A DNA stretch of 64,000 bases from Lytechinus pictus. Its lineage: Eukaryota. Positions 2,186 through 48,152 of this stretch are shown piece after piece; positions within the stretch are counted from its first letter, which is position 1, and each line of letters opens with the position of its first letter. Made by a program: the position numbers and the translations under genes. A model generated the notes under the pieces. That model made no database searches. It was not told the DNA's origin and saw only the letters and a list, made by a program, of their open reading frames with translations. The DNA is taken from positions 15,502,001-15,566,000 of the forward strand of contig NC_087250.1 of NCBI RefSeq assembly GCF_037042905.1, read 5' to 3'.

Positions 2186-5100
2186 CCCAGGTAACAATAC
2201 AGCGTTGGACCAACGTTGGATCAACGTTGGGAAATTTTTTCCCAACGTTGCCTCAACGTTGGCAGGCAAACGTTGCATCATCGATAGAAGTGCACGCGCA
2301 TACATCGTCAGACCAACAACATTTCCAACGTCAGTTCAACGTTGTCCAGCAACAATGTTTCAACGTTGTCTGGCAACGTTGATCCAATGTTGGCTAAATA
2401 GTCAAATACAACATTGCTACAACGTTGTTAAGCAACGTTGCATCATCGATAGAAGTGCACGTCCATACATCGTCAGACCAACAACATTTCCAACGTCAGT
2501 TCAACGTTGTCCACCATCAATGCTCCAACGTTGGTATAATGTCGGCTGAGTCATCAATAACAGCGTTGCTGCAACGTTGATGGGCAACGTTGCAGCAGCG
2601 ATGGACGTGCACGTGCATACATCGTCAGTCCAACTATGTTTACAACGTTGGTTCAACGCTGTCCAGCAACAATGCTCCAACGTTGTCTGGCAACATTGCT
2701 CCAACATTGTTACAACGTTGTCACAACGTTGCTCCAACATTGCTCCAACGTTATTCCAACGTATGGCAGTAATTAACAAAACATTAATTGGTTTCAAGGT
2801 GAAGTCCACCACTACAACTCTACACTCTAATCTTTATCATCATGTCTTATCCTATCCTAAAATCCTACATCCTAATCCTATATCCTATTCCTATCATCCT
2901 ACACCTATCCACTGTATCCTATCATTGACTCCTATATATAGAGCAACTTTGCTATACTTGGCAGAATACAGTTAATATCATTTTCCACACATAACCTTGA
3001 AAATTTCACTTAGAATAATATGTTTTGATTATAAATGATATGGTAAAGGAGCCACATACTTTTCTGAAACTTTTCATGGTTGAAATATTGAATAAACATA
3101 AATACTCTAATTATTATAGCAATATTACCTAAAATTTTGGTCATTTTCTGATGTAATGAATATTCATGAGTGCATAATCATTATGTCCAGATGAGGCAGG
3201 TATGGCAGCGTTGGTCCAATGTTGGTCCAACGTTGGGTGACGTTGATCCAACGTTGGTATAATGTTGGTCCAATGTTGATGGAAAGTTGATTCAACTTTA
3301 GTCCAATCTTAGTCCAACGTTGGCGTAAACGTTGATTCAATGTTTGTCTAATATCGGTTAAATGTTGTTGTAACGTTGATTCTTTGTTGGTCTAATTTTA
3401 AACAAATCCAACGATGCGCCATCTCCATCAAACAGTTTTCAACACAGTGCCATCATCATCTGTAACCTGTTCATGATTCTATCAAAAAACATTACAACTA
3501 TTATTACAGCTATTCATTTCTTTTCATTCTTTCTGTTACAAGTCTCTTCACATAATTAAGAGGAATCAAGAGAATTACGTGTAATATTTATTGAGGCCTT
3601 TGTAGCATTCAAACCTTTTTGACATCCTCTTTTTCTCAAACAAGACTAATACCAAAAAAACATATGCATATGTAATAAGAATTAAGATGTATTACATTTT
3701 CTTGCGAGTTGCAATCTCTGTTTCTGTCTACAATTGTTTAATGACTCGGTATGCAATGCCAATTGCAACGTCAGTAATTATCACAAAAACTCACATGTGT
3801 AATTGCAGTCTCTCAGTATTTACAAAATCTAAAAAGGAGGTCGCGTAACTTGGCGTCACTCAGAGTAATGTCGCTACTGCCTACTGTAACTAAAGAGTGC
3901 CTCTTTTTGATTAAGATAGAAGTCAATTGATATCTCAATATGCATGGCCATGGCCTAGTCTCGCTCGTGCCATAACTATTAAATGATATTTCAGCGTCAA
4001 GTGTAGCATGCCTCACATAGCAACTACAGGTTTGACTGCAGTTGGAAAACACTCGGTCCAGGCTAGGCCAGGCAGGACCAAGCAGGTCAATTCAAGGCAG
4101 CGTATAATAAATAAGGCAGGAATGCCAGGTAGCAAGTCATTGGGTGATTTCAAGTATGGTGTACGGTGTTGAGAGCGTGAAAGGGCTGCTGAACTGAGCT
4201 CCAACACCAAGCGTAATATTATTTTTTATTGAAATGTATTAAAACTCTAATGATTTGCTCTCATCTTAAATGTAAAAGATAATTTTACGGAGATGGTTCG
4301 TCGTGTTCGCCCCCTGTTCGTGAGCTATAGTTCATCAACACCAACACTGAACTTTAAATCACGATTCTCCCAATCCCTGGGGGTCGGTGTTGCTGAATCG
4401 GGAAATTGCATGTAGATCATCAACACCATGCAGCCACAGTGCAGTGTTGGGTTCAGCAGATGACAATCAACACCAGCCTTCAACACAAACTGCCGGAAAT
4501 ACACCATATTTTCCGAGGCCAATCTCAACACCAGCCTGATTCAAGTACGGTGTTGTCACAACAACAACACCAGATTTCAACACTGTACTTGAAATTAATA
4601 AAATCACCCAATGACTGTTGCCTTGCCCTTGGTATCGCATACTCGTTCCCACTCACACGTATTGCGAGGTTAGTATTAGTCACTCACACAAGCTAATTAC
4701 GAGGTTAGTTAGTAGGCCTATAGTTACGTATTGTATTACCGGACACTATCATGATTCCGGACGCGCATAGTACTGCGTACGAAAACAATTTCGTACCGTA
4801 AGACTTCCGCAATTCAATTTCACAGAGCAATACATAGAACAAGATTGCTAAAACAAGGCGAAAAATCCAACTTTTACCTTATTTATCTCTAAAATGACAG
4901 AAAATGATTAAAATATCATATAAGGTAGTTTTGCATTAACAATTGATATATTTTCTGATGAAAAAATGGGCCTGATTTTGCCGAATTTCAGTCTCGTCCG
5001 CTCCTTTGATCGAATGATGAAGTGTGGTGTATTGTGGTTAATCGTCATTTTTAAAGCACTGAAATAAAGGTGTCCGGTAATACTAATAGGATACACTGCC

Positions 5101-7289
5101 ATATGTTATACTGTGCAGTGACTGGTGTTAAGTACTACTTTACTACTACTTACACGAATATAGTAGCGTCGGACTGTACGCGCACAGAAGCTGACTCCGG
5201 GATCTTTCGGAGGGGATCAATGGTTGCAGTTACCGATTATCTGCAAGTGCAAAGAAAATTCCACTGTAGATTTTAGGTCCTAAATATGCAGCTTATAAGT
5301 ACTGTTCCAGATCACTAGATATTCTGGAATTTAATTGTAATATCCAGTCCAAATTCTGCCAGATTCTTCAAGTTCAAAATTGAAGGAAGCAGACTACACA
5401 GACATGACAGAAGGAGTCCGGCGTCACGACTAATTCTGCGCATCAGAATAGTATGGTATTTTTAAATAGGCACATTTGATGCTTGTATTTCCTTCTTCAA
5501 TTTCTTCTAGTTATGTGACGTTAGGCCTATGACATATCTCGTACTTACTGTGAAAGGCCTAGCCAGCTGCAAAGGACGAGGGCGTTTCTGGAAATTCTGG
5601 TCTTGAACTACATTTTTTTCTTGTTTTTCTCTTTTAATTTCTATATTAATCGACACATTAATTTTGCATCCCCCGGTGCATGCAGCCTCTCTATTCTACC
5701 CCATCTTTATTTTTGTTTTCCCCTTAGACTTAGTTCCTCTTTCCCTTCCCATTATTTTCCTTCTCTCTCGATTTCTTTTCCCCTTATTGCTGGGGGATAC
5801 CAAGGGTGACATGGATAGACAAGCAAACTTACTTGATCGACCCCCCCCCCTGGCCTTGGCCCCATTGGAAATTATGCGAGTAGTCGTCTGTATATCATTA
5901 TCAATTCTCCAATTAACCAGTTTCTAACGTTCTCAACACTGGGTATATTATGCCGGGATATTATGTTGACTGTCAAACAAATATCCAACAAACTATAGTT
6001 TCCAACAACTCTCCAATAAATTATTCCAATTACGCTGTCCACGTTGTGCCATTGTCCGTTGTTCAACAACTCTCCATCAAACTAGTTTCCAACTTTGTCA
6101 ACGTTGTGCCATTGTCGACTGTCCAACAAATCTCCAAGAAAATAGTTTCCAACGTTGTTCCTTTGTCGGTTGTTCAGCAACTCTCCATCGAACTACTAGT
6201 TTCCGACGTAGTCAACGCTGTGCCTTTGTTGGCTGTTCAACACCTATCCAATCAAACACGCGTTTCCAACGTTGTGACGTTGTTGGCTGTCCAACAAATC
6301 TCCAACACACTAGTTTCCAATGTTGTGCCATTGTCTGTTGTTCAACAACTTTCCAACGTTGCCAACGTTGTGTCATCGTCGACTATCCTACTGATCTCCA
6401 ATCTACCAGTTTCCAACGTTGTGCCAGTGTCAGTTGTTCAACAACTTTCCATCTAACTAGTTTCTAGCTTTATCAACGTTGTGTCATTGTATACTATCTA
6501 ACTAATCTCCAATCTACCAGTTTCCAACGCTGTGCATGCCATCGTCGACTATCCAACAAATCTCCATCGAACTAGTTTCTAGCCTTTGACAACGTTGTGC
6601 CATAGTTGGTTGTTCAACAACTTTCCATCGAACTAGTTTCCAACGTTGCCAACCTTGTGTCATCGTCGACTATCCAACTAATCTCCAACCTACTAGTTTC
6701 CATCGTTGTGCCATTGTCGACTGTCCAACAACTCTCCAACTAACAAGTTTCCAACGTTGCCAACGTCGTGTCATTGTTGATTGTTCAACAACTTTCCAGC
6801 GAACTAGTTTCCAACGTTGCCAACGTTGTGCATTTGCTGGCTGTCAACAACTATCCAATCAAACGTGTCTCCAACGTTGTGACATTGTCGACTGTCCAAC
6901 AACTCTCCAACTTACTAGTCTCCAACGTTGTGCCATTGTCGACAGTCCAACAAATCTCCAACAAACTAGTTTCCAACTTTGTCAACGTTGTGCCATTGTC
7001 GGTTGTTCAACAACTTTCCAGCGAACTAGTTTCCAACGTTGTGCCATTGCTGGCTGTTCAACAGCTATCCAATCAAACGTGTTTCCAACGTTGTGACATT
7101 GTCGACTGTCCAACAACTCTCCAACTAACAAGTTTCCAACGTTGCCAACGTCGTGTCATTGTTGATTGTCCATCATCTTTCCATCAAACTAGTTTCCAAC
7201 GTCGATTCAACGTTAATCCATCAAGTTTTTCCAACGTCCAACGACTTTCAAGTTTCCAACGTGGAGCCAACGTTGGCTTGTTACCTGGG
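2186..7289. mobile_element. Non-autonomous CMC/EnSpm-like DNA transposon, family A copy 1
   Basis: TIR CCCAGGTAACAA...TTGTTACCTGGG; 2-bp TSD TG; AACGTT-rich subterminal arrays; colinear second copy at 18189-23087. Confidence 0.85.
5920..7280. repeat. AACGTT-rich subterminal tandem array (~51/60-bp units)
   Basis: Repeating unit like GTTTCCAACGTTGTGCCATTGTCGACTGTCCAACAAATCTCCAACAAACTA. Confidence 0.85.
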
Positions 7290-7387
7290 TGGTTACTTAT
7301 TCTATATCCAGAAGCAGTGGCGGGCCGTGACCCGGAGGAGACAATTGATTGGAGCGGCACTGTATTGTATGTGAACAACACTGTGCC

Positions 7388-7694: not shown

Positions 7695-9331
7695 ACTGTG
7701 CCCCTCCAATGATTTGTCTCCTCTGGGTCAAGGTCCAAGTAACTGCAGATATGTACCCACTTTTCGTGTCGTACGTTGATAACGTCCTCTACCTTCCACT
7801 TGTAAGGTGGCACTTGAAGTCGACTTTTTCTTCTTCAGTATGTCACATGACTGAATCACGTGAACATATTTTCACGATTTCAAGGGTGTCGTTCGAATGA
7901 TCATTGCACCCTCGACACAAATAATTCAACTGGGTTCTCGAGAGCACAACTGATCGGTAAGTTTGCATAATTATGATTTTTCCCATTGATTTGTAATTCA
8001 ATAAATTAAATGTTATGGATATTTATTTTTAAGGTTAAAATTATATATGCGAAATGAAACGAAATATTCGTATTATACCATTATTCATTGCTATTACGAT
8101 TAGCATTATTTTGTTAATACTATCATTTTTATTATCATCAACATTATTATTAGTAATATAATGATGGTGCTTATTATTATCATTGTCATTTACCTACTGC
8201 AGTTTTCCATGAATGACCCAAAGAGCTATGTTACTGAGAAATATTTTTTGGGAAGTAATACCTTACAATCCTAGAAATATGGATTGGAAAATAAAATGTT
8301 CTAACGGGGAAGTTCACCGTCAGGATATAGGATGGTTTGAATAAAAGCAGAGGAAATAGAAAAAAATATTGCCGAAAGTTTTATACAAACAGGTCAAAGA
8401 ACAACGGAGTAGTATATGAATTTTAAAAGTTTTTATTTTGTGACGTCACCGACGAGCAGCTCCTAATGCCATGAATGCAGTTTGATGTAAACTCCCCCAA
8501 AATGGTGAAAATGATAGTTATTTTTTTTGGTATCATCAGACACACCATTTCGTAACCCGCTCTATTTGAAAATATTATTCTTGTTCCGATGTTCATTTTT
8601 TACAACCGGGGAGGTTCCCAGCCAGCATGTTCCGGCGGCCCGCAGGTACTTTTGCGGTCACCGGTGGCGACAGGTTGCAGCTGTTTGCCGTTCCTGTGCC
8701 GCTGCAGCCACTGATGGCCACCGACATTGTTGCGCCTGGTGTACGAAGCAAACTGGAACAAGCGGGCCACCTCCGGGCCGGCGTTTGTAATACGATTGTG
8801 TGGATTTTACCTGGATCGTACGGCGGCCCGCAGGTACATTTACGGTGGCTACAGGCGGCAGCTGTTTGCCGCTGCAGCCACTGATGGCCCACCGACATTG
8901 TTGCGCCTGGTGTACGAAGCAAACTGGAACAAGCGGGTCACTTCCGAGCCGGCGTTTAAATTCTAGGTGGCCCATCAGCGGCCTAAAAGCGGCAATCTCT
9001 GCGGCTGGTTGCGTGGAAGTGGCAGGTAAGTTGGTAGCAGTGGTCTGCTGATAGCAATGAGGTGGCATCAAGGTGGCTAGAAAGTGGCAAATGTGATATT
9101 TAGTAGAGCGAATATTGTGTGGATTTTGCATGGATCGTACATGATTTTGTTTTCGTTAGTTTTTCCTTATATCAAATGATTCCGTCAAAATATTATGTTG
9201 AGATGAATGAACTAATGGTAAAGGTACAACAGTTGCAACTCCTTATGAAACAGGCCCCATGCAGATATAATAATAATATTCCGCATTTATATAGCGCTTA
9301 ACACATCGGAACGACGTCTCTGAGCGCTTTA

Positions 9332-9739
9332 AGGCGACCGCACACCTTACGATTGGTCTGCGACCCGATTTCAGAATAAAATGTGATGCTAATATTGAGA
9401 CTTGGAATATCTTACTGTGTAATGTTCTAAATCATCGTACGAATACCTATATTCAAATCTGTGACTATGCTATCATCCTTCTTACAATAAAAGCGAATTT
9501 AATATTATCTAGTCGTAATGACGTCATAGCAGTCGTACGATTGGCTACGATTTGAAACTAATTTGGCTTTTACTCCAAAATAAAGGCTTGCAATCTTTCA
9601 AAATGGTTATTTTAGTATTCTTTCAATTAATTTCAACCTCAAATGAAATTATATGTTCCATTCACATTTTCAGAAAATGAGCAAAATGCGATTTGTTCCA
9701 AAATCGGATCGCGAACAGTCGTAAGGTGTGCGGTGGCCT
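9332..9739. mobile_element. PIF/Harbinger-like MITE
   Basis: TIR AGGC(G/C)ACCGCACACCTTACGA; 3-bp TSD TTA. Confidence 0.75.
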
Positions 9740-10640
9740 TTACATATATAATATTACCCCGGTCATCGGATCCTTGCGTACCCGCATACAACGTAGGCAC
9801 CTTCTCCACTCCCTGGGGAGCATTCCAACAAGAGTTCCAAGACTCAATTGCTAAGCATACTACACAGGCTTTCGCATCCTACCGGGTACCCATTTAACAA
9901 CTGGGTGGAGAGTGGCAAATTGTGGATTGACGCCTTGCCAAAGGACGCTAGGCCATGGTGGGATTCGAACACACAACCCTCTGATTACAAGGCGAGAGTC
10001 AGAACCGCTACACCACGGCGCACAGTGGGCCGGGGCGAAACAAAAGTGCGCCAAAAGTAATTTTGGGCAATTTTAGATTTTAAATTTTTTGTCATGCCCA
10101 GCTGAAAGACAACACTTTGAAGAATACTTCAGCAAAATATTTCATTCGGGAATTTGCATAAAGGTTGTAAATTTCCTACCTCAAATCGTAAAATGTGACA
10201 TTTTGCGAAATGCCGCGTATATGACAACTTAGTTGAAAAACAAGCCATTTCACAGGAGGTTTTTCATGCAGGAATCTGAAATGGCACCCACATAATCCTG
10301 ATATATTCTTTTTTCGTGTGAAATGGTTCAAAGTAGATAAAATACACATTTCAGGAGGTTTATATGATAATTATTCCTCGAAATAGGCTGATAATCCATT
10401 TTTTTTGCATTTACATTAGAAACGTTTAAATTTCCGTGAATTTCCGTTTAAATTCTATCATCATCATTTTGCCAGATGTCTAAGCTTTAAGTCGATACCA
10501 AATTTAGCTGCCCGTTTTCATGTTAGAGCCGGTTTTACTTGACACAACACCCCCAAAACCTGTTAAAAAAACTGTCATGTTTATACCTCGCAGTCATCCC
10601 AGCGCATCGTGTACATGGTGTGGGGTGTACATTGCCGTTC

Positions 10641-11614
10641 ATTCCCGACCTTTCGTTGGAGAACGCGAACGCTTATTTGCGACGGTAGTTTATTTTGGAA
10701 GAGACTTTTGGGCCCGTCGTCATGGTCGTAAAACTCTGTCCTGCAATGCAAATTGTGTGACATGCGATTTTTTTTCGTTTAGCATCTGGAACGGAAACAT
10801 CCAATTTGCATTTCGTGTGCAAAACTCTGGTTGCTACTATGAAAACAGCGATATATCCGATTTAGGACGACTTTCCAAAGCCACATTTGGTTCCTCCCAG
10901 AGCTCAAGAGGCCGCCCGGGGGCCCACTTCCATTGAAGAGTGGATACCAGGCGCGACCACGCGTAAAAAGGGAAAGAGTGGGCAAGTGCGTAACGTATAG
11001 GCCTATGTAACGTGTCAAAAACGATGTTTAAAATACTGAAAAGGAGGATATGTTTTCAATACTTGTAGGGTTTCACAAGCTCAATACTTGTTAAGAGATG
11101 CATTTTCATAATCTGGAAAAGACTTGCTTCCCTTGTTTAGGGTGCTTTTCGAAACCCCATGGTCGTGCCTGGTATCCACTCATCAATGGAAGTGGTCCCC
11201 CCGGGAATTTGAATCTAATCTCCCATTTCTGGGGAAAGTAAAACATAATGCCCATTACATTGTGTGCTAGAGGCATACCGTTTGTGTAGAAGGAGTAAAC
11301 ACAAGAAAAAAACCCGCAAATACGTCTGAATTTCAGTCGATTTTGAGGGGTTTTTTTTCTTTTGTTTACTCCTACTCAAACGATATGCCTCTAGCACACA
11401 ATGTATGGGCCTCTTGCATATGCTGTGTACATATCAACGCATGCGAAATGGTTTCGGCTGGAGAGGTGATCTGACCCATGGAATCAATTGCCAGTGATCC
11501 ACCAATAATCCACATTAAATGCAATACCGATTCGATGGACTGTAATGATCTATATCTAAGCCTTAATTCAGTAACTTTTTCCTCACTCAATATGTACTCG
11601 ATGTGTTTGAAAAA
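10641..11614 (+). repeat. Unclassified ~1-kb dispersed repeat
   Basis: Colinear with 26562-27350; a short diverged match lies near 18004-18100. Confidence 0.75.
10915..11205. mobile_element. MITE with CCCGGG termini
   Basis: CCCGGGGGCCCACTTCCATTGAAGAGTGGATACCAGGC...GCCTGGTATCCACTCATCAATGGAAGTGGTCCCCCCGGG; also present inside the 26.6-27.3 kb copy. Confidence 0.65.
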
Positions 11615-12296
11615 CAAAATAAAGGTTGGTAACGCATATAAGGGCTACCCGCTCCTCTTTCAGAGATAAAAGTTACTTGTAGAATAATTTCAGCCCAAAA
11701 CCCTCCTCATAGTAAAACATTCGTGGTGTTATATACTCTGTCTACACCGCTCGATAAAGCATGGTTAATATTTTTTTCCGATTTTTAAGTATTTTTTTAA
11801 ATGTAATGATCATTTTGATGCCATACAATTATTTTCAAGATCTCATACACACTTGTTAGGCATGTGAGAAGCATAAATCAACATTCACTCTGGTCAATCT
11901 TAAAGTAACACATAACACAAAGTTTATATTCTACACATTGTTTAGCGTAATTTGTCTTTTCACAGATAGGTTTTAAGTAGCCAATCAAAATTTGGCATCA
12001 AAGTGACGTCATATCGGCTTTAAATTATGTTCAGTCGATTCTACGCCCAAAATTACCCTTAATCAACATGTTAAAATAAAAATATAACACGAAATGTAAT
12101 TTTGGCGCACTTTCAACTCATTCTGGCCCACTGTGCGGCGCTTCCATCTAAAGGGGGAAAAAGAAAATAGTGACAGGAATGAAATAGGGGAAGGAAAGGA
12201 AAGATATAATTTATATTCTTTTTGTGCACTAAGACCTTAAAACTGTTTTTGCCTGCTTTATTTGGTGCCGAGATCTACATGCGATATAATCATAAG

Positions 12297-12448
12297 CATA
12301 GGCGGCGGAAGCGGGGGGAAGGGGGGACCTTAAGGTAGACCCCCTAAAATTGTTGTGGGACCCCCCTAAATTTTGGTTGATAACTTTTTTTTTTTGCTTG
12401 TCAAATTTTTTTGGTGGTCCCTCCTAATTTTTTTTCCCGCCGCCAATG
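12297..12448. mobile_element. hAT-like MITE
   Basis: CATAGGCGGCGG...CCGCCGCCAATG; 8-bp TSD ATCATAAG/ATTATAAG. Confidence 0.7.
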
Positions 12449-15105: not shown

Positions 15106-15612
15106 TTTGTACAACGCTTCCGTCCGGCTGTTATTACTCAAGCATATCTTTTGCTTAAATCGTTTGCCGCTGCATTTTCTTATGCTTACATGTTGCATTT
15201 ATGTCTAAATGTTTATATTGCTTCTGTGTTCTAGTTGTGTCACATTGCAATGTATTTTATTGCCATATTACGTATTACGATTATGTATTGTAAATTAATT
15301 TTTACTTTACAATAAATGCAAAAACTCAAGTGGGGTGTGTGTGTGGGGGGTGCGGTAGGATCGTTACCGGTTAAGGATCGGTCCCACTGCACTTGCAGAT
15401 GCAAAAAGGATGTAAAACGTAAAAAATTTGTTCACAATTTGTCAATTGATGATAAGTGAGTCCCGACTGACTGTATGTGTGTGTCTGTGGGTAGGGTGAG
15501 TGTGGATGGTGTGTATATATGTGAGTCTGAGTAATGGTGCTTGGTTAGCTCGTCACCATTTTTGTTGTCTTTATAGAACTATATAGGTGGTAAACGATCC
15601 GTGGGCTTAATT

Positions 15613-16000
15613 ATGGATTCCCCATTACCATCAGCAACAACCTCCTCCTCCTGGACGAATGGTTCTATTCCACTCTACGCAGTCACACTGGCCATCCTTC
15701 TGCTGTTCTTCTTGAAACGAACTTCCGGCAAAACGAAAGGGCGCCCTCTTCCTGGTCCAAGAGGTCTTCCAATCATAGGAAGCACTCTCGAGTTTCTCTT
15801 CTCTAAACTGGACCCGAGGGAGATCCACGAGAAATGGGCGAAGGAATACGGCGAAATATTCATGTACAAGCTGTTGGGATCTCGTTTTGTTTTCCTGAAC
15901 AACCCTGATATCATCCGCGAGGTTTATGCAGCTGGGAATCATGTCCACGACCGAATCCCTATCCTTCTCTGCAACAAAGCCCTTGGAAGATCCAACACAG
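15613..16000 (+). CDS. Cytochrome P450 (clan 2-like) exon 1
   Basis: ATG 15613; N-terminal membrane anchor; proline-rich LPGPRGLPIIG; phase-1 donor CAG|GTAATG. Confidence 0.9.
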
Positions 16001-16615
16001 GTAATGGTGTAGTTACATACATGGCATTTTCTCCTGTGATAGTTGCTCCCACTGAAAATAGACACCTCAAGCCACGCATAATCCAGAGATACAAAACCAA
16101 CCCTCACATGACTCACCCTTTGGTAATCTTAATCCTCACATAATTCTGAACCAAAAACCCTCTCACATCAACTCTAACCCTTCCCTTATACATACATAGA
16201 TATATGCGGAGGAGCATTTTTCATGTGAGAAAATGCGGTGTCACCGCGCAATCACAGATGCAAACCGTCTGCGAATCAGTCATTGGTATGCCATTCGAAA
16301 TAACGTATGCTGTGTGTTCAGGTTCACAAAATTCTTAGGGTTCAGTATATATATATATATATAATAGCCACTTTCCGTTTGGAGGAACGAAATGTGATGA
16401 CTGACGTGAACAGCATGCGTTGCCAACGCATCACGGTCCCCACTTGTGCTTGGTGATCTCACATTCGCACTAGATTGTGGTTTGTAGTGTAGATTTAGTT
16501 TTCAGGATATGCCATATCAAGGTTTGTCCTTTGGACCTTGGTATTGTTGGATACAACACCGAAGGAAAAAACCCGCCATAACTCTTACCCTATAACACGA
16601 ACTCTATTTTTTCAG

Positions 16616-17133
16616 ATCTTGGTATAGTTGGATGCAAAGCCGATCTCGACTGGAAGAATCTGCGAAAGTTCGTCCAACACGTCCTGCGGAACTTCAAGAG
16701 CTACTACTCAAGCTTTGAACCTGTTGTGGCATCTCAGGCAACGCGCCTCGTTGATGAATTCTCCAGTCACAAAGGCAAGCCCTTTGAACCGCAGGGAAAC
16801 ATCTACGCCACTGTCGCTAACATCACCACCACTATTGTAATGGGGAAGACATACGAGTACGAAGATCAAGAGTTTGTGGCTCTGGTAAAGACTTCACAGG
16901 ACATCTTTGACTATCTTGGCGCACTCACAAACAACTACCATATCCCGTTGGTTGCTTCGGTTCCCGTTAAATCAAATAGGAATGGCTACCGGTCTATTTC
17001 TAAATTGTTCCGCTTCATAAGGGACACGGTGGATGAAACCCGTAGGTCTTTGGACATCAGGAAGAAGACGACAGAAAGCGAACAGAACATCGTACAGTCC
17101 TTCCTAGAGCAGCAGAAACTCAGGGAAAAGGAG
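16616..17133 (+). CDS. Cytochrome P450 exon 2
   Basis: TTTCAG acceptor; C-helix WKNLR; open frame; phase-0 donor GAG|GTGAGT. Confidence 0.9.
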
Positions 17134-18188
17134 GTGAGTCCGAAAACCCGAAAAAAACAATGAGCGTGTTTTAGAAGACACTCATTTTCTCGTCTTTGGT
17201 TGAGCATTATGACAACACACGAAAAATCTTCCCAACTGGTCGGAAGAACTGTTTCTCACGGTGTATTCAAAGCGTGTTCACATAGTGGACTGAGTAAAGT
17301 TGTGATTTACATTTACAGGTATACGTAGAGTGTGCTTACATAGTGGACTATGTGAAAAAAAAAGATTCACACTGTGAAAAAAGCTCAAATTTGAGAGTGT
17401 GAAGATGAGATCACACTCTGTACCACTGTACACTTTGAACACACTGTAATTGGACACGGTTCTTTCCAGCATGAGTAGGGCCGAGCGAGATGAAAATAAT
17501 GAACACAAATTATATACGGCCACCAGAAGAGGCGATTGGAACTATGGGTCCCGAGGCAACCCCAGAATGCGACTATTTTCTTGAGGGGATCAGACCCAAA
17601 GGAAAATGGTCACATTCGCCTCACTAAGCGGGCCATAGTTTCGCCACACCTCCGATCGAAGGCCGTATATATTTGGTTTATATCTGTCATCAGTATTAAA
17701 CGAAAAATGTGAAATATAATCGAATGAATGACAATAAGGAATCGGTCTTCCATTGAGATATATATGTAGGCGATTGATCACAATGTGTCTACGCGCACTG
17801 TTTGCCATGCGTTTGATTCAACCCCCGCCCATCAAGCCATATACTTTTGTACTATTTACGACTCGCGGTACGTACCGTTCCCGTCTTATGACATCAGATG
17901 TCAGGATTTGCGGCACATTTGCCGAAATTGGTGACGTTGGTTGGAACTATCTTTGGCCACATGAATGTGTTTAGACCAAACACCTATTCAGAATGATATA
18001 CCGGACCTTTCGTTGCGCCACGCGAACGGACCTTTACGACTGTAGTTGCTCTTGAAGAGACATTTGGGCCCGTCGTAAAAGACTGTCCTGCAAATGCAAG
18101 GACGACAGGGCCGGTATTCAAACGTACATGACGGTGTATTTGGCTAAGTGTATTACTCAGTATAGAATTTCCTCCTCAGGAGAGCTTA

Positions 18189-21100
18189 CCCAGGTAACAA
18201 TACAGCGTTGGACAAACGTTGGGAATTTTTTCCCAACGTTGCCTCAACGTTGGTAAGCAACGTTGCATCATCGATAGAAGTGCACGTCCATGCATCGTCA
18301 GACCAACAACATTTCCAACGTCAGTTCAACGTTGTCCACCATCAATGCTCCAACGTTGGTATAATGTCGGCTGAGTCATTAATAACAGCGTTGCTGCAAC
18401 GTTGATGGGCGACGTTGAAGCAGCGATGGACGTGCACATACATACATCGTCAGTCCAACTATGTTTACAACGTTGGTTCAACGCTGTCCAGCAACAATGC
18501 TCCAACGTTGTCTGGCAACATTGCTCCAACATTGTTATAAAGTTGTCACAACGTTGCTCCAACATTGCTCCAACGTATGGCAGTAATTAACAAAACATTA
18601 ATTGGTTTCAAGGTGAAGTCCACCATTACAACTCTACACTCTAATCTTTATCATCATGTCTTATCCTATCCTAAAATCCTACATCCTAATCCTTCATCCT
18701 ATTCCTATCATCCTACACCTATCCACTGAATCCTGTCAGTGACTCCTATATATAGAGCAACTTTGCTATACTTGGCAGAATACAGTTAATATCATTTTCC
18801 ACACTTAACCTTGAAAATTTCACTTAGAGTAATATGTTTTGATTATAAATGATATGGTAATGGAGCCACATACTTTTCTGAAACTTTTCATGGTGGAAAT
18901 ATTGAATAAACGTAAATACTCTCATTATTATAGCAATATTACCTAAAATTTTGGTCATTTACTGATGTAATGAATATTCATGAGTGCTTAATCATTATGT
19001 CCAGATGAGGCAGGTATGGCAGCGTTTGTCCAATGTTGGTCCAACGTTGGGTGACGTTAATCCAACGTTGGTCTAATGTTGGTCCAATGTTGATGGAAAG
19101 TTGATTCAACGTTAGTCCAATGTTAGTCCAACGCTGGCGTAATGTTCCAATGTTTCAATGTTTGTCTAATATCGGTTAAATGTTGTTGTAACGTTGATTC
19201 TTTGTTGGTCTAATTTTAAACAAATCCAACGATGCGCCATCTCCATCAAACAGTTTTCAACACTGTGCCATCATCATCTGTAACCTGTTCATGATTCTGT
19301 CAAAAAAACATTACAACTATTATTACAACTATTCATTTCTTTTCGTTCTTTCTGTTACAAGTCTCTTCACATAATTAAGAGGAATCAAGAGAATTACATG
19401 TGATATTTATCGAGGCCTTTGTAGCATTCAAACTTTTTTGACATCCTCTTTTTCTCAAACAAGACTAATACCCCAAAAACATATGCATATGTATTAAGAA
19501 TTAAGATGTATTACATTTTCTTGCGAGTTGCAATCTCTGTTTCTGTCTACAATTGTTTAATGACTCGGTATGCAATGCCAATTGCAACGTCAGTAATCAT
19601 CACAAAAACTCACATGTGTAATTGCAGTCTCTCAGTATTAACAAAATCTAAAAAGGAGGTCGCGTAACTTGGCCTCACTCAGAGTAACGTAGCTACTGCC
19701 TACTGTAACTAAAGAGCGCCTCTTTTTTTATTAAGATAGAGGTCAACTGATATCTCAATATGCATGGCCATGGCCTAGTCTCGCTCCTGCCATAACTCTT
19801 AAATGATATTTCAGCGTCAAATGTAAGCATGCCTCACGTAGCAACTACAGGTTTGACTGCAGTTGGAAAACACTCGGTCCTGGCTAGGCCATGCAGGACC
19901 GACCAGGTCAATTCCAGGCAGCGTATAATAAATAAGGCAGGAATGCCAGGTAGCAAGTCATTGGGTGATTTCAAGTACGGTGTACGGTGTTGAGAGCGCG
20001 AAAGGGCCGCTGCTGAACTGAGCTCCAACACCAAGCGTAAAATTATTTTTCATTGAAATGTATTAAAACTCTAATGATTTGCTCTTATCTTAAATGTAAA
20101 AGATAATTTTACGGAGATGGTTCGTCGTGTTCGCCCCCTGTTCGTGAGCTACAGTTCATCAACACCAACACTGAACTTTAATTTAAAAAAATCACGATTC
20201 TCCCAATCCCTGGGGGTCGGTGTTGCTGAATGAGGAAATTGCATGTAGATCATCAACACCATGCAGCCGCAGTGCAGTGTTCAACACAAACTGCCGGAAA
20301 TACATCATATTTTCCGAGGTCAATCTCAACACCAGCCTGATTCAAGTAGGTGTTGTCACAACACCAACACCAGATTTCAACACTGTACTTGAAATTATTG
20401 AAATCTCCCAATGACTGTTGCCTTGCCCTTGGTATCGCATACTCGTTCCCACTCACGTATTGCGAGGTTAGTATTAGTCACTCACACAAGTACGAGGTCG
20501 AGGTTAGTTATATGTTTACTGTGCAGTGACTGTTGTTAAGTAATTACACGAAAATACTAGCGTCGGACTGTACGCGCACATAAGCTGACTCCGGGATCTT
20601 TCGGAGGGGATCAACGGTTGCAGTTACCGATTATCTGCAAGTGCAAAGAAAATTCCACTGTAGATTGTAGGTCCTAAATATGCAACTTAGAGGTACTGTT
20701 CCAGATCACTAGATATTCAGGAATTTAATTGTCTATATCCAGTCCAAATTCTGCCAGATTCTTCAAGTTCAAAATTGAAGGAAGCAGACTACACAGAAGA
20801 AGGAGTCTGACGTCGACGCGTCGCGACTAATTCTGCGCATCAGAATAGTATGGTATTCTTAAATAGGCACATTTGATGCTTGTATTTCCTTCTTCAATTT
20901 CTTCTAGCTATGTGACGGTAGGCCTATATATATCTCGTACTTGCTGTGAGAGGCCTAGCCAGCTGCAAAGGACGATGGCGTTTCTGGAAATTCTGGTCTT
21001 GAACTACATTTGTTTTCTTGTTTTTCTCCTTTATTTTCTATATTAATCGACATTTGCATCCCCCGGTGCATGCAGCCTCTCTATTGATCGACCAAATCTT

Positions 21101-23087
21101 TATTTATGTTTTCCCCTTAGTTTTAGTTCCTCTTTCCCTTCCCATTATTTTCCTTCTCTCTCCATTTCTTTTCCCCTTATTGCTGGGGGATACCAAGGGT
21201 GACATGGATAGAAGAGCAAACTTACTTGATCGACCCCTTGGCCCCATTGGAAATTATGCGAGTAGTCGTCTATATACCAATTCTCCAATGAGCCAGTTTC
21301 TAACATTCTCAACACTGTGTATATTATGCCGGGATATTATGTTGACTGTCAAACAAATATCCAACAAACTATAGTTTCCAACATTGTGTCAATGTTAACT
21401 GTCAACAACTCTCCAATAAACTATTCCAATTCCGCTGTCCACTTTGTGCCATTGTCCGTTGTTCAACAACTCTCCATCAAACTAGTTTCCAACTTTGTCA
21501 ACGTTGTGCCATTGTCGACTGTCCAACAAATCTCCAAGAAAATAGTTTCCAACGTTGTTCCGTTATCGGTTGTTCAGCAACTCTCCATCGAACTAGTTTC
21601 CGACGTAGTCAACGCTGTGCCTTTGTTGGCTGTTCAACAACTATCCAATCAAACACGTTTCCAACGTTGTGACATTGTTGGCTGTCCAACAAATCTCCAA
21701 CACACTAGTTTCGAATGTTGTGCCATTGTCTGTTGTTCAACAACTTTCCAACGTTGCCAACGTTGTGTCATCGTCGACTATCCTACTGATCTCCAACCTA
21801 CCAGTTTCCAACGTTGTGCCAGTGTCAGTTGTTCAACAACTTTCCATCTAACTAGTTTCAAGCTTTATCAACGTTGTGTCATTGTCTACTATCTAACTAA
21901 TCTCCAATCTACCAGTTTCCAACGTTGTGCCATCGTCGACTATCCAACAAATCTCCATCGAACTAGTTTCTAGCTTTGAGTGTGTATGTGTATATTTGAG
22001 TTTTATCAGACGTGTATCAATCAGATATGATTATTTACGTCTGGGACCGACCTTTAACGTCACCATCCGAAAGACGTGACCAGGGCTCGAACCTCGAACC
22101 TCTGCATCAATTTGTAACTTCCCCACGTAGCTTGGATTACAGGCGCACGCCACAACGCCCAGTCAACGTTGTGCCAACAACCAACTATGGCACAACGTTG
22201 TGCCATAGTTGGTTGTTCAACAACTTTCCATCGGACTAGTTTCCAACGTTGCCAACCTTGTGTTATCGTCGACTATCCAACTAATCTCCAACCTACTACT
22301 AGTTCCCAACGTTTTGCCATTGTCGACCGTCCAACAAATCTCCAACAAACTAGTTTCCAACTTTGTCAACGTTGTCTCATTGTCGGTTGATCAACAACTT
22401 TCCATCGAACTGGTTTCTAACGTTGCCAACGTTGTGTTATTGTTGGCTGTTCAGCAACTATCCAATTAAACATGTTTCATCGTTATGCCATTGTCAACTG
22501 TCCAACAACTCTCCAACTAACAAGTTTCCAACGTTGCCAACGTCGTGTCATTGTTGATTGTTCAACAACTTTCCAGCGAACTAGTTTCCAACGTTGCCAA
22601 CGTTGCAAACGTTGTGCCTTTGCTGGCTGTTCAACAACTATCCAATCAAACGTGTCTCCAACGTTGTGACATTGTCGACTGTCCAACAACTCTTCAACTT
22701 TCTTGTTTCCAACGTTGTGCCATTGTCGACCGTCCAACAAATCTCCAACAAACTAGTTTCCATCTTTGTCAACGTTGTGCCATTGTCGGTTGTTCAACAA
22801 CTTTCCAGCGAACTAGTTTCCAACGTTGCCAACGTTGTACCTTTGCTGGCTGTTCAACAACTATCCAATCAAACGTGTTTCCAACGTTATGACATTGTCG
22901 ACTCTGTCCAACAACTCTCCAACTAACAAGTTTCCAACGTTGCCAACGTCATGTCATTGTTGATTGTCCATCATCTTTCCATCAAACTAGTTTCCAACGT
23001 CGATTCAACGTTAATCCATCAGGTTTTTCCAACGTCCAACGACTTTCAAGTTTTCAACGTAGAGCCAACGTTGGCTTGTTACCTGGG
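18189..23087. mobile_element. Non-autonomous CMC/EnSpm-like DNA transposon, family A copy 2 (P450 intron 2)
   Basis: Same TIR CCCAGGTAACAA...TTGTTACCTGGG; 2-bp TSD TA; colinear with 2186-7289 with indels. Confidence 0.85.
21979..22162 (-). mobile_element. Candidate 7SL(SRP RNA)-derived SINE
   Basis: Absent from copy 1 of the host element. Minus strand: CTGGGCGTTGTGGCGTGCGCCTGTAATCCAAGCTACGTGGGG head, GGTTCGAGCCC B box, CA-rich tail. Confidence 0.7.
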
Positions 23088-23258
23088 TAAGGTACACCTT
23101 GTGGTTTCCGTAGGTCTGAGTCATAGAGAGGTGTATAGAATTGAAGTGGAGAGGGCAAGAAGGTGGTAGATTGTAAAGCAGAGTTTCTTTCGGCAATGGG
23201 TATAGTCCTTATAGAGGACGATAGTCCTTAAAAAGAGTGAAAATCAGCAGAGCTTTAA

Positions 23259-23862
23259 AGGACAAGTCCACCCTAACAAAAATTTGATTTGAATAAAAAG
23301 AGAAAAATCCAACAAGCACAACACTGAAAATTTCATCAAAATCGGATGTAAAATAAGAAAGTTATGACATTTTAAAGTTTCGGTTAATTTCACAAAACAG
23401 TAATATGCACATCCTGGTCGGTATGCAAATGAGGAGACTGATGATGTCACCCACTCACTATTTCTTTTGTATTTTGTTATATGAAATGTGAAATATTCTA
23501 ATTTTCTCCTCATTGCCAAGTGAAATAACGATTAATTTTTCCCTGTACATGTGGAATTAGCATTGTTTAATACTATATGGTTTAGTCAAGTTGGTCCTTA
23601 TTGTCAAATCTGTAAAAAGTTAAATATTGTAAAATTCGAACAATAAAAAGCAAAAGAAATAGTGAGTGAAGGACATCATCGTCTGTTTCATTTGCATGTC
23701 ACTGAGTTGTGCATATCACTTTTTTGTGAAAAAATAAGCGAAACTTTAAAATGGCATAACTTTCTTATTTTACATCCGATTATGATGAAATTTTTAGCGT
23801 TCTGCTATTTTGATTTTTCTCTATCTATTCAAAACAATATTCTTCTGGGGTGAACTTGACCT
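23259..23862. mobile_element. Kolobok-like MITE
   Basis: TTAA|AGGACAAGTCCACCC...GGGTGAACTTGACCT|TTAA; long imperfect TIRs. Confidence 0.75.
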
Positions 23863-24052
23863 TTAAGGTTGAAAGTTGAGAAACTAGTTGGAGAGATGAG
23901 GGAAGGTTGCAGTAACTTGAGTTGGCGAATGTATAGCAGAGCAGGAAAAAAGACTCGAGAGAAGAAATTCTTATAGTCTCTTTCAGTTAGAACTATATGT
24001 CTAACTCTCTTTAGTTGATTCTGAAAGTCTTTGAATGATTTCCCCCAAACAG

Positions 24053-24521
24053 GGCAAGAATCACGTCTTCACGGATCCTAACCTCTTTCAGACTGTATTC
24101 GATCTCTGCTTCGCGGGATTCGACACCGTGAGCTGCAGCATATGTTGGATCATTCGACTCCTCTCCCACCACCGGGACGTCCAGGAGAAGCTCCAAGCCG
24201 AACTCGACGACGTCGTAGGACGTGATCGCATGCCACTCCTGAGCGACGGCGACGACCTCCCTTTCGTGATGGCAACCATAGCTGAGTGTTATCGAATCTC
24301 CCGGATGATTTCCACCCAGCTACCCCATGTCGTTGACAGCGACTGCGAGGTCAGAGGATACCACGTTCCAAAAGGGAGCTTCGTGTCAGTAAACGCCTCG
24401 TGGCTGGCGTGCAATGAGGCGACCTGGGAAGACCCGGAAGTGTTCCGTCCTGAGCGATTCATCGACGACACAGGATCATTTGACGTGAACTTGGAAAACA
24501 AGATGATGAAATTTGGTGTCG
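24053..24521 (+). CDS. Cytochrome P450 exon 3
   Basis: I-helix FAGFDTV, K-helix ECYR, PERF, start of heme loop FGVG; donor G|GTGAGT phase 1. Confidence 0.93.
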
Positions 24522-24837
24522 GTGAGTGGCCAAATGTATTACTAAATATTGTTTTAAACGAATGGTAGCTACGATTAAGGCCGGTGCCATGTTCAGATGG
24601 GGAACTAACTTTGGTGGTGGTGGTGGAAGTGAGGGGGGGGGGGGTAAATAATTTTTAACTGAACATGCGCGAGACAATTTACACCTTAATCATCATCATA
24701 CAAGCTTTGAAATCTATGTCAAACCAACTCGCTTTCAGTAAAGTAAATTAAGGCTTGATTTTTTTATTAATAATTTATTTGCAGTTTCGAATCGTTCATA
24801 TAGCTTCGAATCCGTCAATAAACCTCACTCTAGTTAA

Positions 24838-25701: not shown

Positions 25702-26561
25702 GAGGGTAATCCATTAAGGTTGGACGGCGAGGCCACTCGACCGATGCAGACAAGATATGAGTTTAAAAGCGCTACAACGCACAATAAGCCAGTTCGTAGT
25801 TCCTTTCTGTGCATGATCAAAAGGTTCTACGCATGATCAGAGGAAGGTCATTTGTACTTAAGTGACATGGTGGTTTAAAATCTAATGAGATGAGCTCCAA
25901 CTTTGATGTCTTGATCATTCATATATTCTTTTGAATTGTGGTTTTCATTTACATCCACAAAAAACAACAACGCGTCCACGAACGACTGGTTTTCACAGTT
26001 TGCCAAGTACATTGTGCAACATGCTATGATATGCATTCAAAGTAGGAATGCAACAAATACCTTCATAAAGTGTTCATTGGTGTGCTATTCTAGTCACCTG
26101 GTCTATTCAATTTCTTCATCCTACTATGTAAGGCAAGCTTACCTAATATTTTGCTTTGAAATCTGCCTATCATAATGAAAGAAATGAAAGGTCATTTGAC
26201 CGAAAATTGTCCATGAGTAACTACGAACTGGTCTATTGCATTATAGGTCACACGGCCACTTACGGTAGCTTTCTCCGTTTTCCTATTTTTCTTCTTTTTA
26301 ACATTAATGTTTTACATATATATCGATTAGTAATCGTATGTTTGCGTTTTATTTTTATTTGAATTGAAAATAATGTCTGTTTTTAGTTATATAGTTCAGT
26401 ATTTCATTGAAATCGTACGTTTGAAGGGTCATTATTTTGAAGGTATAAAGTTATTTTGTCATACACTGTTTGGGCAGGGGATGTTCCGAGCCTTGTTCAT
26501 AATTTTTTTAAACAATCCGTATTCCGTAACCATCCTTAACCTTCCGCATCAATTCGCAAGA

Positions 26562-27350
26562 TTCCCGACCTTTCGTTGGAAGAACGCGAACGCCTATTTA
26601 CGACGTTAGTTGATTTTAGAAGAGACTTTTTGGCCCGTAGTCATGGTCTTAAAACTCTGTCCTGCAATGCAAATTGTGTGACATGAGATTTTTTTTCGTT
26701 TCGCATCTGGAACGGAAACAGAGCTCGAGAGGCCGCAAGGGGGGGGGGGCCCAATTTCATTGAAGAGTGGATACCAGGCGCAACAACGCGTAAAAAGGGA
26801 AAGAGTGGGTAAGTACGTTCCGTATAGGCCTATGTAACGTTATAAAGGTGTCAAAAACGATGATTAAAATACTGAAAAAGGGATATATTTCCAATACTTG
26901 TAGGGTTTCACAAGCCAAATAATTGTTAAAAGATGCATTTTCATAATCTGGAAAAGACTTGCTTCCCTTGTTTAGGGTACTTTTCGAAACCCCATGGTCG
27001 TGCCTGGTATCCACTCATCAATGGAAGTGGTCCCCCCGGAATTTGAATCTAACCCCCATTTCTGGGGAAAGTAAAACATGATACCCTTTACATCGTGTGC
27101 TAGAGGCGTATCGTTTGTGTAGAAGGTGTGAACAAAAGAAACCCGCATGCAAACGTATTGCATACGCTGTGTACATATGCGAAATGGGTTCGGCTAGAGA
27201 GTTGATCTGACCCATGGAATCAATTGCCAGTTATCCACCAATAATCCACATTAAATGCAATATCGATTCGATGGACTGTAATGATCTATATCTAAGCCTT
27301 AATTTAGTAAGTTTTTTTCTCACTAAATATGTACTCGATTTGTTTGAAAA
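26562..27350 (+). repeat. Second copy of the unclassified repeat at 10641-11614
   Basis: Direct sequence similarity with internal deletions. Confidence 0.75.
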
Positions 27351-27767
27351 ACCACTTTCTTATCCATGTCATATTCTATTTTAGGTCCTGCATTTCGAAT
27401 ATCTCCAGCCATCAGTCGTAATACATGCATGTATGGCGCGCGGGTGTCGCGGGAAAGAATTTTGCACACGAAAAGCAGATCTGTAGGGCCTGTAACCCCC
27501 TGTAACACAAATCTTAGCATTGATTGTAGAGCAGTTTCCTACGTTTGATTCTATTGACTATAATGTACAATCAATCTTAAAAATCAAGTGTATGATTAAG
27601 CGTCAACTTTTGTGTTAGGGGACCCTAATATTAGCGTCCGTGATGATTGCGAAAGGTGGCAATTATCTGCAAGTGGACGCAGGAATCTGCATCAACACGT
27701 ATCTATACGCATCGTCCGCATCTCTTTCAGGAGGTAGGCCTATATGATAAAAAAGTGGTGATGGGAA

Positions 27768-43899: not shown

Positions 43900-44990
43900 T
43901 TGCATTTGGAGATATTGATGGCAAATTTACTGTATTTAAAAATATGTTCATTGTGTAAGATTCTACTTTGTTATTTATTGTGTATATTTTAATGTTTTTT
44001 ATTAATCTGATAGACAGGGCCCCTTGGCAGACCAATACTCGATATTGAAAGGGCATAAAGGGCTACACTGTATAAAAAAGTCCAAATACAAAAAAAATGG
44101 AGGGATTCCCCAAATGCTAAAATTACATGTCATGGTGGGGATTCCCCACCGCCTAGATGAAAGAGGGTCAAATGACCGAGAGCTTGATTGATGGGTTCAT
44201 GTCTTTTTTTTCTGGAAGGTCTGAATAAATGGAAACTCAATAAGCGGGATGCAAGACTTGTAGTGTTTCGAGATATTGATGGAAAATGGAATGTATTTAA
44301 AAATATGTTCATTATGTAAGATTCTACTTAGTAATTGATTGTGTATATTTTAATGGTTTTTTTAATCTGTTTAGACAGGGCCCCTTGGCAGAACAATACT
44401 TGATATTGGAAGGGCATGAAGGGCTAGCCTGTATAAAAAAAACAAATAAAAAAAAATGGTGGGATTCCCCAAATGCTAAAATTACATGTCATGGTGGGGA
44501 TTCCCCACCGCCTAGATGAAAGAGGGTCAAATGGCCGAGAGCTTGATAGATGGGTTCACGTCTTTTTTTTTTCTGGAAGGTCTGAATAAATGGAAACTCA
44601 ATAAACGGGATGCAAGGCTTGTAGTGTTTGGAGATATTGATGGAAAATGGAATGTATTTAAAGATATGTTCATTATGTAAGATTCTACTCAGTAATTTAT
44701 TGTGTATATTTTAATGTTTTTTAAAATCTTTTTAGACAGGGCCCGTTGGCAGAACAATACTTGATATTGGAAGGGCATGAAGGGCTAGCCTGTATAAAAA
44801 AAAACAAAAAAAAAATGTTGGGATTCCCCAAATGCTAAAATTACATGTCATGGTGGGGATTCCCCACCGCCTGGATGAAAGAGGGTCAAATGACCGAGAG
44901 CTTGATTGTTGGGTTCACTTCATGTCTTTTTTTTCTGGAAGGTCTGAATAAATGGAAAATCAATAAGCGGGATGCAAGGCTTGTAGTGTT
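43900..44990 (+). repeat. Tandem repeat, ~359-bp period, ~3 copies
   Basis: GGGATTCCCCAAATGC recurs at 44102, 44461, 44820; each unit has a LINE-like 3' hairpin plus oligo-A. Confidence 0.9.
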
Positions 44991-45027
44991 TAACCTTTCT
45001 TGGGCATCAACCTTGTATTACCCTTCT

Positions 45028-45231: not shown

Positions 45232-46267
45232 ATCCTCCTCCCCTCACACTTTCTTACTTTACAACAGTGTTGTGCATGGTGCCGTAATGCCCGGCCTTGG
45301 CCTTACGCTTAAGGCGCTTTAATCAAAGCCTTGAACCTTGAAAGGGCCTTGGTCTTGTCATTGAGGATTTGGGGCCTGAAATTTCAAGGCTTTTTCAAGC
45401 AATTTTGTACTTTCAATTGTTTTTCATGTAAGTGATTATACATTTTCTAATTGTTGTGTATATTCAAGGACGATAATGGCCTATACTACTAGTCAGCAGC
45501 AGCAGCATATAGTTAGTGGATTATAGCAGTGTCACGAATTGTAGTTATCACTGTTATCATCACAGCAAAGAAAACATTAATGAGGAAAAAATGTTGACAA
45601 TGGCACTGGTAATGTAATAATGACTAATGATTATAATAACAATTGATAATTACATTAATAACAAATATGATAATAATAATGATGATAGTAATAATGATAA
45701 TGATTATAGGATGAAAATAATAAAAATGAATCTAAACATGATGATGAAAGTAATAATAATGATAGATCTGACTGCGATTTCGACAATAATTATCATAATT
45801 TAAAGCATACCTAACTCGAAAGAATTATAGCAAGGTTGCATGATTTTTATACTATTAGGTTTTTCCTTCTTTTATTTCATTTAGAGTCAAAAGGGGCATA
45901 TTAAGCTTTCGATCCTAGCAGAATCTTCGTCGGAGGCAAAATGACAAACATATAAAGTGGAACAACCATGATATAGACCACAGACATGCAACAGCAACAC
46001 TCATTTTATTCAGCCAGCAAAGATGATTAAAGTTTTAATGACAATTAAAATTGGATAAACTTAAACACAATCTTCAATTCTGTCGTATTAAAAATGACTA
46101 TGCCAATAGCATGATGGGCCAAAAATTTCGAGGGGCCAATATTTGCATGTTTTTTTTTTTCAAACAAGACACCCTCGTGACCATGCATTGACATGTTTTC
46201 AAATATTTTTCCACAACTCTGAAAAGTAAAAAAAAGGATAAATGACCCGAATTTCTCATTTATTTAG

Positions 46268-46585
46268 CCTTGCCAACTCTGCCCACTCTGAAGAATGCAC
46301 CCGAATTAGTCAGCGTTGCGAACTCGTTTATTTCAGTGGGATGGAATCTTAATTACACTGGTGACGGTCCAGTCTGTGGGTCCAACGTCTATGTCCAACA
46401 TCCTCTGTCGACATCGTGGTTGAGTGTCGGTTTTGTTCCCGTTGAAGAAGATGTATCCTACTACCAATTCGTGATTGACCGACTGGACGCTGGGACCACA
46501 TATGGTATTAGTGTACGTCTTCTCCATTGCTCGGGGAAAGAAGGGGCAGCAAGCCCCGAACTATCCGCGTCAACACAGAATTATG
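46268..46585 (+). CDS. FN3 domain exon A1
   Basis: AG/GT bounded, phase 1-1; ISVGW...GDGPVC...LDAGTTYGISV. Confidence 0.85.
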
Positions 46586-47415
46586 GTAAGTTGATTTCCC
46601 CGCCCCTTGTGCGTATTGGTCCGTATTGCGAAGTTGGATTTGATTTAAACTCTTGTCTAAATTTGTGCAGGCATTTTATCACACAAAACCGCATATACGC
46701 TTGCTATAAACAGGATAAATTATTCCAGTAAACGGACGATTGTATAATAAGCATAGTAGCATAAGGACCAGAAAATGCGCTCTTTGAAACTGGCCACTTT
46801 AAACCTGTAAACATATGGTATGCCAATGAAAAGATACAGGGGGGGGCGATTGTAATTGAGCAAGGCTGGAAAGCGACCGAGCACGAAAATTCGGTGTTCA
46901 TTTTCCCCAAATCGGACCAAATCATTTCGAATGAACATGCTATACGACGGGTACGAGTAAAAGTTCGTTTGTATGTTTTTACCAGAGAAACATAATAGGG
47001 CGTTTCGACGGATTCGAGAACTTAAAAAAAATGTATTGCCAAACTCCCTTCATGACAAAACATAATCAATCAGTCTTTGTCGAAAACAGAAGAATCAAAA
47101 CAGTTTCATCCTGGACCCTAGACAAACTACATTATTTTGCAAGTTTTCGTCAGCTCCTTGCCGTTTCACCAATTTTCGACAAGCCTCCCAGCTGTTCTTT
47201 ATCGTTTGACGTGACGGGCATTTTCAATACATTTACTCTGTCCTTGGATCCGTCCCCGTTACAATTGCGAAAACACCCTATTGTTCTCAAATCAGTGACG
47301 AGAAAATAACGAACTAGTATTTTAGCTGTATTTATATCACTTCGATTAAATGCATGTTTTTTTTTAACCAACCACACAAAACTAGATAACTAACCTGAAT
47401 TTCTCATTCATTTAG

Positions 47416-47724
47416 GCTTGCCAACTCTGAAAAATGCACCCGAAGTAGTCAACGTTACGAACTCGTATATTCAGGTTCAATGGCATCTTAATTACAATGG
47501 TGACGGTCCAGTCTGCGGGTCCAACGTCTATCTCCAATATCCTACGTCGACATCGTGGTCGAGTGTCGGTTTTGTTCACGTGGAAGAAGATGTACCCTAC
47601 TACCAATTCGTGATTGACCGACTGGACGCTGGGACCACATATAGTATAAGTGTCCATCTTCTCCATTGCTTGGAGAAAGAAGGGGCAGCAAGCCCCACAC
47701 TATCCGCGTCAACACAGAATTATG
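47416..47724 (+). CDS. FN3 domain exon A2
   Basis: 309 nt, phase 1-1; paralog of A1. Confidence 0.85.
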
Positions 47725-48152
47725 GTGAGTATAGTATGTGCATAATGGTCTGTTTTCCGAAATCGGATTTGATTTGGTCTAATGTTGTGTTTTAATTATG
47801 GATAGCAAGTTGTGACATAAATATCTAATACAGGTTTGATATATAAGAAAGACACTGACTTCAGAAATAAGGACAGAGCGTAAGAACTATACCAGCTCTC
47901 TCCTATCCTGAATGAGATGAGGGCGGACAAGACCGACTGGCCCGTCCAAAATGGCCCAAAACATCGAAGAAAGGTCTACACCGTAAACCTAATCGCACTG
48001 GAATGTGACTGAGGTATAACCTTTGAAACATGCCAAAAGCCCTCGGTTATTGTGTTCAATTCTTACTAATGTCTTCAATCATGTCAATGTTATTAGTATA
48101 ATATTTTGAAAAGGAAGTAAAAATAAATTTTCTTGTTAATTTCATTTACTAG

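Follow-up and report, generated by a model that had tools for sequence, protein, structure and literature searches.

Transib ends mostly resemble RSS23; in some insect families they resemble RSS12 and RSS23 (PMC1131882). A Transib end has been defined as an RSS23-like stretch of about 38 bp that starts with CAC and has As at nonamer positions 5 and 6 (PMC1131882). Because RSS-like Transib ends have been published, a perfect heptamer followed by a 23-spaced A-tract is a known feature of such elements. Transib-N1_SP, a family of the purple sea urchin, has a symmetric terminal inverted repeat (TIR) of 36 bp (PMC1131882, Fig. S4g). Its 11 listed copies are about 0.56–1.0 kb long; in the figure, CGNCG forms the 5' flank in 10 of the 11, and CGGCG is present on both sides in three of the 11 (PMC1131882). 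Transib1_SP is autonomous, measures 4132 bp, has a CGGCG target site duplication (TSD), and carries a single transposase gene of 676 aa (PMC1131882). What ties Transib-N1_SP to the Transib1_SP transposase is the nomenclature of the authors and a common TSD (PMC1131882).

In the 64,000-nucleotide stretch of Lytechinus pictus DNA analysed here (the window), an element with such ends interrupts a SINE-like repeat. Its features are:

9802..10020, minus strand: high-copy tRNA-headed SINE-like repeat, 5' head interrupted by the element (from motifs, depth, and loose ends)
10016..10020, plus strand: left TSD copy, CGGCG (5 bp), single in uninterrupted SINE copies
10021..12135, strand (.): whole non-autonomous Transib element, 2115 bp (TIR and TSD pair; many different contigs of three DNA runs)
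10021..10056, plus strand: left TIR, 36 bp (heptamer and GGCC, 11-bp spacer, 14-bp distal block)
10040..10048, plus strand: 12-spaced nonamer-like ACAAAAGTG, its last six bases within the distal block common to both ends
10057..10640, plus strand: left arm, non-coding, with homology to the arms inward of the TIRs at loci L001 and L002
10641..11615, plus strand: internal composite repeat, 975 bp, recurring at 26561–27352 without Transib ends
11616..12099, plus strand: right arm, non-coding, with no detectable homology to the left arm, L001, or L002
12100..12135, minus strand: right TIR, 36 bp, layout as on the left
12136..12140, plus strand: right TSD copy, CGGCG (5 bp)

Ends and target site

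Both tips read CACAGTG, starting at 10021 on the plus strand and at 12135 on the minus strand, with CGGCG at 10016–10020 and 12136–12140, just as the earlier note had reported. Its further description of a bipartite TIR, with 11 conserved bp followed by 11 variable bp, also holds. Positions 1–11 and 23–36 are identical between the left and right TIRs, the spacers agree at 3/11 positions, and the overall identity is 28/36. At each end CCAAAA was again found 23 bp beyond the heptamer, with a 5/9 match to the RSS nonamer. Both ends are RSS23-like: they start with CAC and, beyond 23 bp, have As at the fifth and sixth nonamer positions.

The whole window was scanned for CAC...GTG pairs 0.1–15 kb apart with a 5-bp direct repeat. 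This TIR and TSD pair was the best (28/36, versus 21 and 19), and only three pairs reached at least 18/36. The pairing of the two TIRs is not due to chance. The bipartite TIR pattern matched twice in the window, at the two ends of the element, and not at all in 100 shuffles; as the pattern was derived from these same ends, the window scan speaks solely to the absence of a further copy. The remaining 11 CACAGTG sites in the window, all lacking the distal block, were rejected as Transib ends.

The left-flank repeat carries A-box-like and B-box-like motifs and yields a tRNA call at a relaxed threshold. It has the highest depth and loose ends at 9802 and 10021, and it resumes for a few bases at 12141, beyond the right TSD. 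We infer that it is a SINE. Upstream of it, at 9331–9740, lies a pair of inverted repeats of about 50 bp that are 84% alike, probably a small foldback element.

At 10021, 124 contig ends of run X1, 134 of run X5, and 437 reads of run X23 depart from the window and continue with TTCC. The window likewise continues with TTCC after the right CGGCG. The target site is thus single in uninterrupted SINE copies, and the CGGCG pair is therefore a true target site duplication. Neither the position of the element inside a SINE nor the separate repeat in its middle 975 bp had been mentioned in the earlier note.

Interior and related copies

The internal repeat recurs at 26561–27352 with 89–93% identity. 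It contains a 45-bp inverted-repeat pair (10915–10959 and 11160–11204) and a foldback at about 11250–11410. Its depth is mostly above that of the arms, and contigs depart at 11615 and go on as the window does beyond 27352. A further copy lies at 17998–18099; it and the copy at 26561–27352 both begin at the equivalent of 10641, a common start that points to a separate repeat with a fixed end. The locus 26561–27352 was rejected as a second full element because the TIR pattern is absent there. Without the internal repeat, about 1.14 kb of the element remains.

The longest stop-to-stop frame inside the element has 142 aa, compared with 676 aa for the Transib1_SP transposase, and Pfam matched no family in any of the six frames (0 of 6). 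The earlier note had likewise seen no transposase inside. Among the 13 long open reading frames of the window, six of which were scanned against Pfam, no transposase was recognised. Three Rfam matches on 9600–12400, all far under the gathering score, were treated as chance hairpins.

A 12-bp motif occurs inward of both TIRs, at 10057–10068 (offset 37) and 12045–12056 (offset 80), and is a possible subterminal binding site. This reading is weakened because position 10059, within the left motif, is private to this copy of the element and deviates from nearly all contigs; the motif was not relied on. In a minority of contigs, 12050–12092 is replaced by 10 other letters.

Contigs of X1 and X5 cover all bins of the element and those of X11 most bins, and the flank 12149–12235 has no X1 or X5 contig coverage. 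The best run contains 0.37 of the words of the stretch, and no listed piece spans the whole stretch; summed depths were not taken as copy numbers. The search for runs containing the stretch listed no RNA run; on the arms, the RNA run X23 has low depth and mostly partial reads and is uninformative on transcription of this copy. One contig matches 11899–12137 and continues with 38 unaligned letters, as expected of a copy at another insertion site. A contig of organism C spans 12003–12141 with four differing letters, of which three apparently fall outside the TIR. With at most one apparent TIR difference, the right spacer is common to at least one other copy. Rare joints in X5, for example from 10498 to 11963, suggest shorter family members. 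No second full-length copy was seen among the contigs examined, and no TIR-region difference appears among the 40 of 410 differences listed.

The bipartite TIR pattern was found at two loci in metagenome contigs (L001 and L002), with no match in genome contigs (spacer 9–23) or viral contigs (spacer 0–25). These collections are not animal genomes, and their zero matches are uninformative on asymmetric copies. The two loci share about 365 bp starting at the heptamer and are mutually 87% alike. Their 5-bp flanks are CGGCC (L001) and CGACG (L002); together with CGGCG at the element, they show a GC-rich target preference of the same type as in Transib-N1_SP. Against shuffles, the left arm of the element scores z 5.8 and 8.7 in comparison with the arms of L001 and L002, and the right arm z 0.0 and 1.2. 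With the right end in one contig and the left ends in L001 and L002, the element belongs to a dispersed family whose homology ends at the TIR tip.

At L001, the Transib left arm is broken at about position 405 by an element (406–1252) whose ends form 38-bp inverted repeats and whose interior holds palindromic repeats. At L002, 33 bp (35–67) are 88% identical to 10481–10513 of the window, about 460 bp from the heptamer in both, and represent an internal motif conserved in the left arm.

The window holds several other repeats and genes. Two copies of a block of about 4.9 kb with many CAACGTTG-type tandem repeats (2409–7290 and 18234–23088, 89–94% identity) represent either a large non-coding repeat or a local duplication. 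The second copy sits between P450-like coding frames. Frames of a cytochrome P450 gene lie in 15577–24568, with Pfam p450 matches at 15577–16140 and 24035–24565, and the frame 16582–17160 looks like part of this gene, with no Pfam match of its own. Three tandem copies of a 361-bp unit, 92% alike, occupy 43905–44991. Repeated units of about 1.1–1.7 kb, 80–90% alike, fill 46218–51928; the frame 46246–46731 has a weak fibronectin type III match under the cut-off. Two consecutive reverse transcriptase frames at 61595–63256 are probably one broken non-LTR retrotransposon. With its P450, fibronectin type III, and reverse transcriptase frames, the window has the look of animal DNA.

Comparison with Transib and RAGL ends

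Compared by eye with the published figure, TIR blocks 1–11 and 23–36 of Transib-N1_SP are identical to those at both ends of the element, and the identity over the entire TIR is 32/36 on the left and 28/36 on the right. CACAGTG tips, 5-bp TSDs of the CGNCG type, and the non-autonomous state are shared as well. However, the Transib-N1_SP TIRs are symmetric, whereas the two ends of this element are 28/36 alike with spacers at 3/11, and its spacers carry four (left) and eight (right) differences from Transib-N1_SP. Its length of 2115 bp, or about 1.14 kb minus the internal repeat, also contrasts with the near 0.9 kb of that family. The differing spacers and the length imply a sibling rather than a member of Transib-N1_SP. 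By its TIRs and length, the features that the comparison covered, the element thus appears to represent a sibling family. The reading as a non-autonomous Transib, proposed in the earlier note, is supported by the TIR blocks, the TSD, and the lack of coding, and is narrowed to this sibling. No title on the sibling family was met in the literature searched; Repbase lay outside that search and may already have it catalogued.

The earlier note had placed ACAAAAGTG exactly 12 bp after the left heptamer, at the left end alone, and had derived from it a possible 12/23-like asymmetry. The placement is correct, with 6/9 matches to the nonamer on the left and 3/9 at the same place on the right. The motif is composed of three spacer bases and six bases of the distal block common to both ends. 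Matches of at least 6/9 to the nonamer occur at about 2% of all positions. By base composition, the chance of ACA before AAAGTG is about 0.018 per end, and in the window two of 42 such sites, this one among them, have it; we infer that the chance is higher given an ancestor like Transib-N1_SP. Taken alone, the 12-spaced motif is weak evidence.

The asymmetry itself is not supported. The distal block lies at positions 23–36 on both ends, with no length asymmetry, and the left nine-mer differs by one base, at TIR position 22, from symmetric Transib-N1_SP, which in its figure has a 5/9 nonamer match (by eye) at the 12-spaced place on both ends. The homologous left ends of a sister family kept ACA in neither of two cases: L001 reads GCAAAAGTG, with GCA in place of ACA and 5/9 to the nonamer, and L002 reads GTAAAAGTG, with GTA and 4/9. 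The A at position 22 was kept in both. A symmetric consensus and an ordinary Transib parent, which the earlier note had named as removing the RAG-like reading, are largely provided by the sister family Transib-N1_SP/Transib1_SP, and not by a consensus of the element's own family.

A true Transib subfamily, in which the left end gained a functional 12-spaced A-tract and the right end works through its 23-spaced one, is an improbable explanation, but it survives best among the alternatives. It would account for the difference between the left and right spacers, the latter seemingly shared between copies as judged from the organism C contig. It would also account for the A at position 22 in all three left-type ends (window, L001, and L002), which makes four As in the 12 register and is replaced by G at the right end; as L001 and L002 are so alike, this amounts to about two observations. 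Asymmetric Transibs do exist in insects (PMC1131882, PMC8355894), and the H. zea Transib responds to nonamer position (PMC4840297). The insect families Transib5, Transib2_AG, and TransibN1-3_AG share with the element a CAC heptamer followed by GG and a 5-bp TSD, but in their descriptions the spacer length differs between the ends, whereas here the layout is equal and the distal blocks are equidistant (PMC1131882, PMC8355894). In either register, nonamer positions 5 and 6 are As at both ends, and the replacement of ACA in L001 and L002, although these loci are not independent, also counts against this subfamily, as does the Transib-N1_SP match at that place on both ends. It is improbable that the element represents a subfamily of deuterostome Transibs having perfect RSS heptamers and a fixed functional 12-spaced tract on the left besides the 23-spaced tracts on both ends, whose transposase would pair left with right.

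Still less likely is a descent by internal deletion from a RAG1L-RAG2L (RAGL, TransibSU) transposon, the RAG-like origin that the earlier note had considered. RAGL, TransibSU, and ProtoRAG elements resemble the present one in their CAC tips, 5-bp GC-rich TSDs, and non-autonomous copies of about 2 kb (PMC4411706, PMC7204232, PMC10462144). Such copies with GC-rich TSDs were described from lancelets and an oyster, some of those in lancelets with CGGCG or CGACG (PMC7204232), and sea-urchin RAGL TIRs have not yet been identified (PMC9885083). The perfect CACAGTG heptamer and the 5-bp TSD also fit; however, CAC tips and a 5-bp TSD are common to Transib and RAGL and thus not diagnostic, and given the lancelet elements of similar size and TSD, these two traits alone cannot decide between them. 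The TIRs argue against this origin. In the RAGL TIRs described, an A-rich TR2 follows directly after the heptamer (PMC7204232, PMC10462144), with five As in a starfish element (PMC4411706), whereas the present element has GGCC there and no A-rich TR2. The 10-bp length asymmetry between the ends of PflRAGL-A (PMC10462144) is absent, and the TIR blocks match those of the described family Transib-N1_SP. Pfam found no RAG1L or RAG2L remnants inside in six frames, which a deleted copy need not keep, and CACAGTGG and GCGCCAAAA do not occur in the searchable text of nine supplementary files of PMC7204232, one of them truncated; this text excludes alignments given as pictures.

A chance pairing of two unrelated repeat ends, to which the composite interior and the lack of detectable homology between the arms might point, is practically negligible, as it is largely refuted by the empty site, the 5 bp that are exactly duplicated here occurring once in other SINE copies, and by the wide margin of the window's best TIR and TSD pair.

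Mobilisation and meaning

The element is thus very probably a cut-and-paste non-autonomous Transib, a sibling of Transib-N1_SP mobilised in trans by a transposase of the Transib1_SP type. This explanation draws on direct observation of the ends, the duplication, the empty site, many related copies, the lack of detected coding, and the identity of the TIR blocks to Transib-N1_SP. Transib1_SP shares the TSD CGGCG and encodes the probable type of mobilising transposase, unlike the element, in which none was detected. Gene-less Transib copies are mobilised in trans in flies (PMC1131882, 10.64898/2026.08.26.747230). No autonomous parent was seen in the window or in the pattern-scanned contig collections, which are not animal genomes. 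The difference of the spacers between the ends (3/11), unlike in Transib-N1_SP, counts against this explanation.

In the proposed course of events, a Transib1_SP-type transposase from another copy, the presumed parent, would bind both ends. Cleavage at the CAC tips would follow the nick-hairpin route, by analogy with the H. zea Transib, for which this chemistry and a 5-bp TSD have been described (PMC4840297). Insertion with a 5-bp stagger into the GC-rich CGGCG in the SINE head would then generate the 5-bp duplication. The distal block, equidistant on both ends, is probably a second, putative binding site, and the 11 bp between the blocks would be free to vary.

That Transib ends resemble V(D)J signals was already published in 2005, together with a sea-urchin family carrying the same TIR blocks (PMC1131882). 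The element adds one well-supported insertion with its empty site and a sibling family with differing left and right spacers. It would gain greater weight only if the left/right spacer difference were fixed and functional. The asymmetric Transibs named in the cited papers are from insects (PMC1131882, PMC8355894). An asymmetric deuterostome Transib, if true, would bear on the question of whether the RSS originated from a Transib ("Transib seed") or from a RAGL-A transposon.
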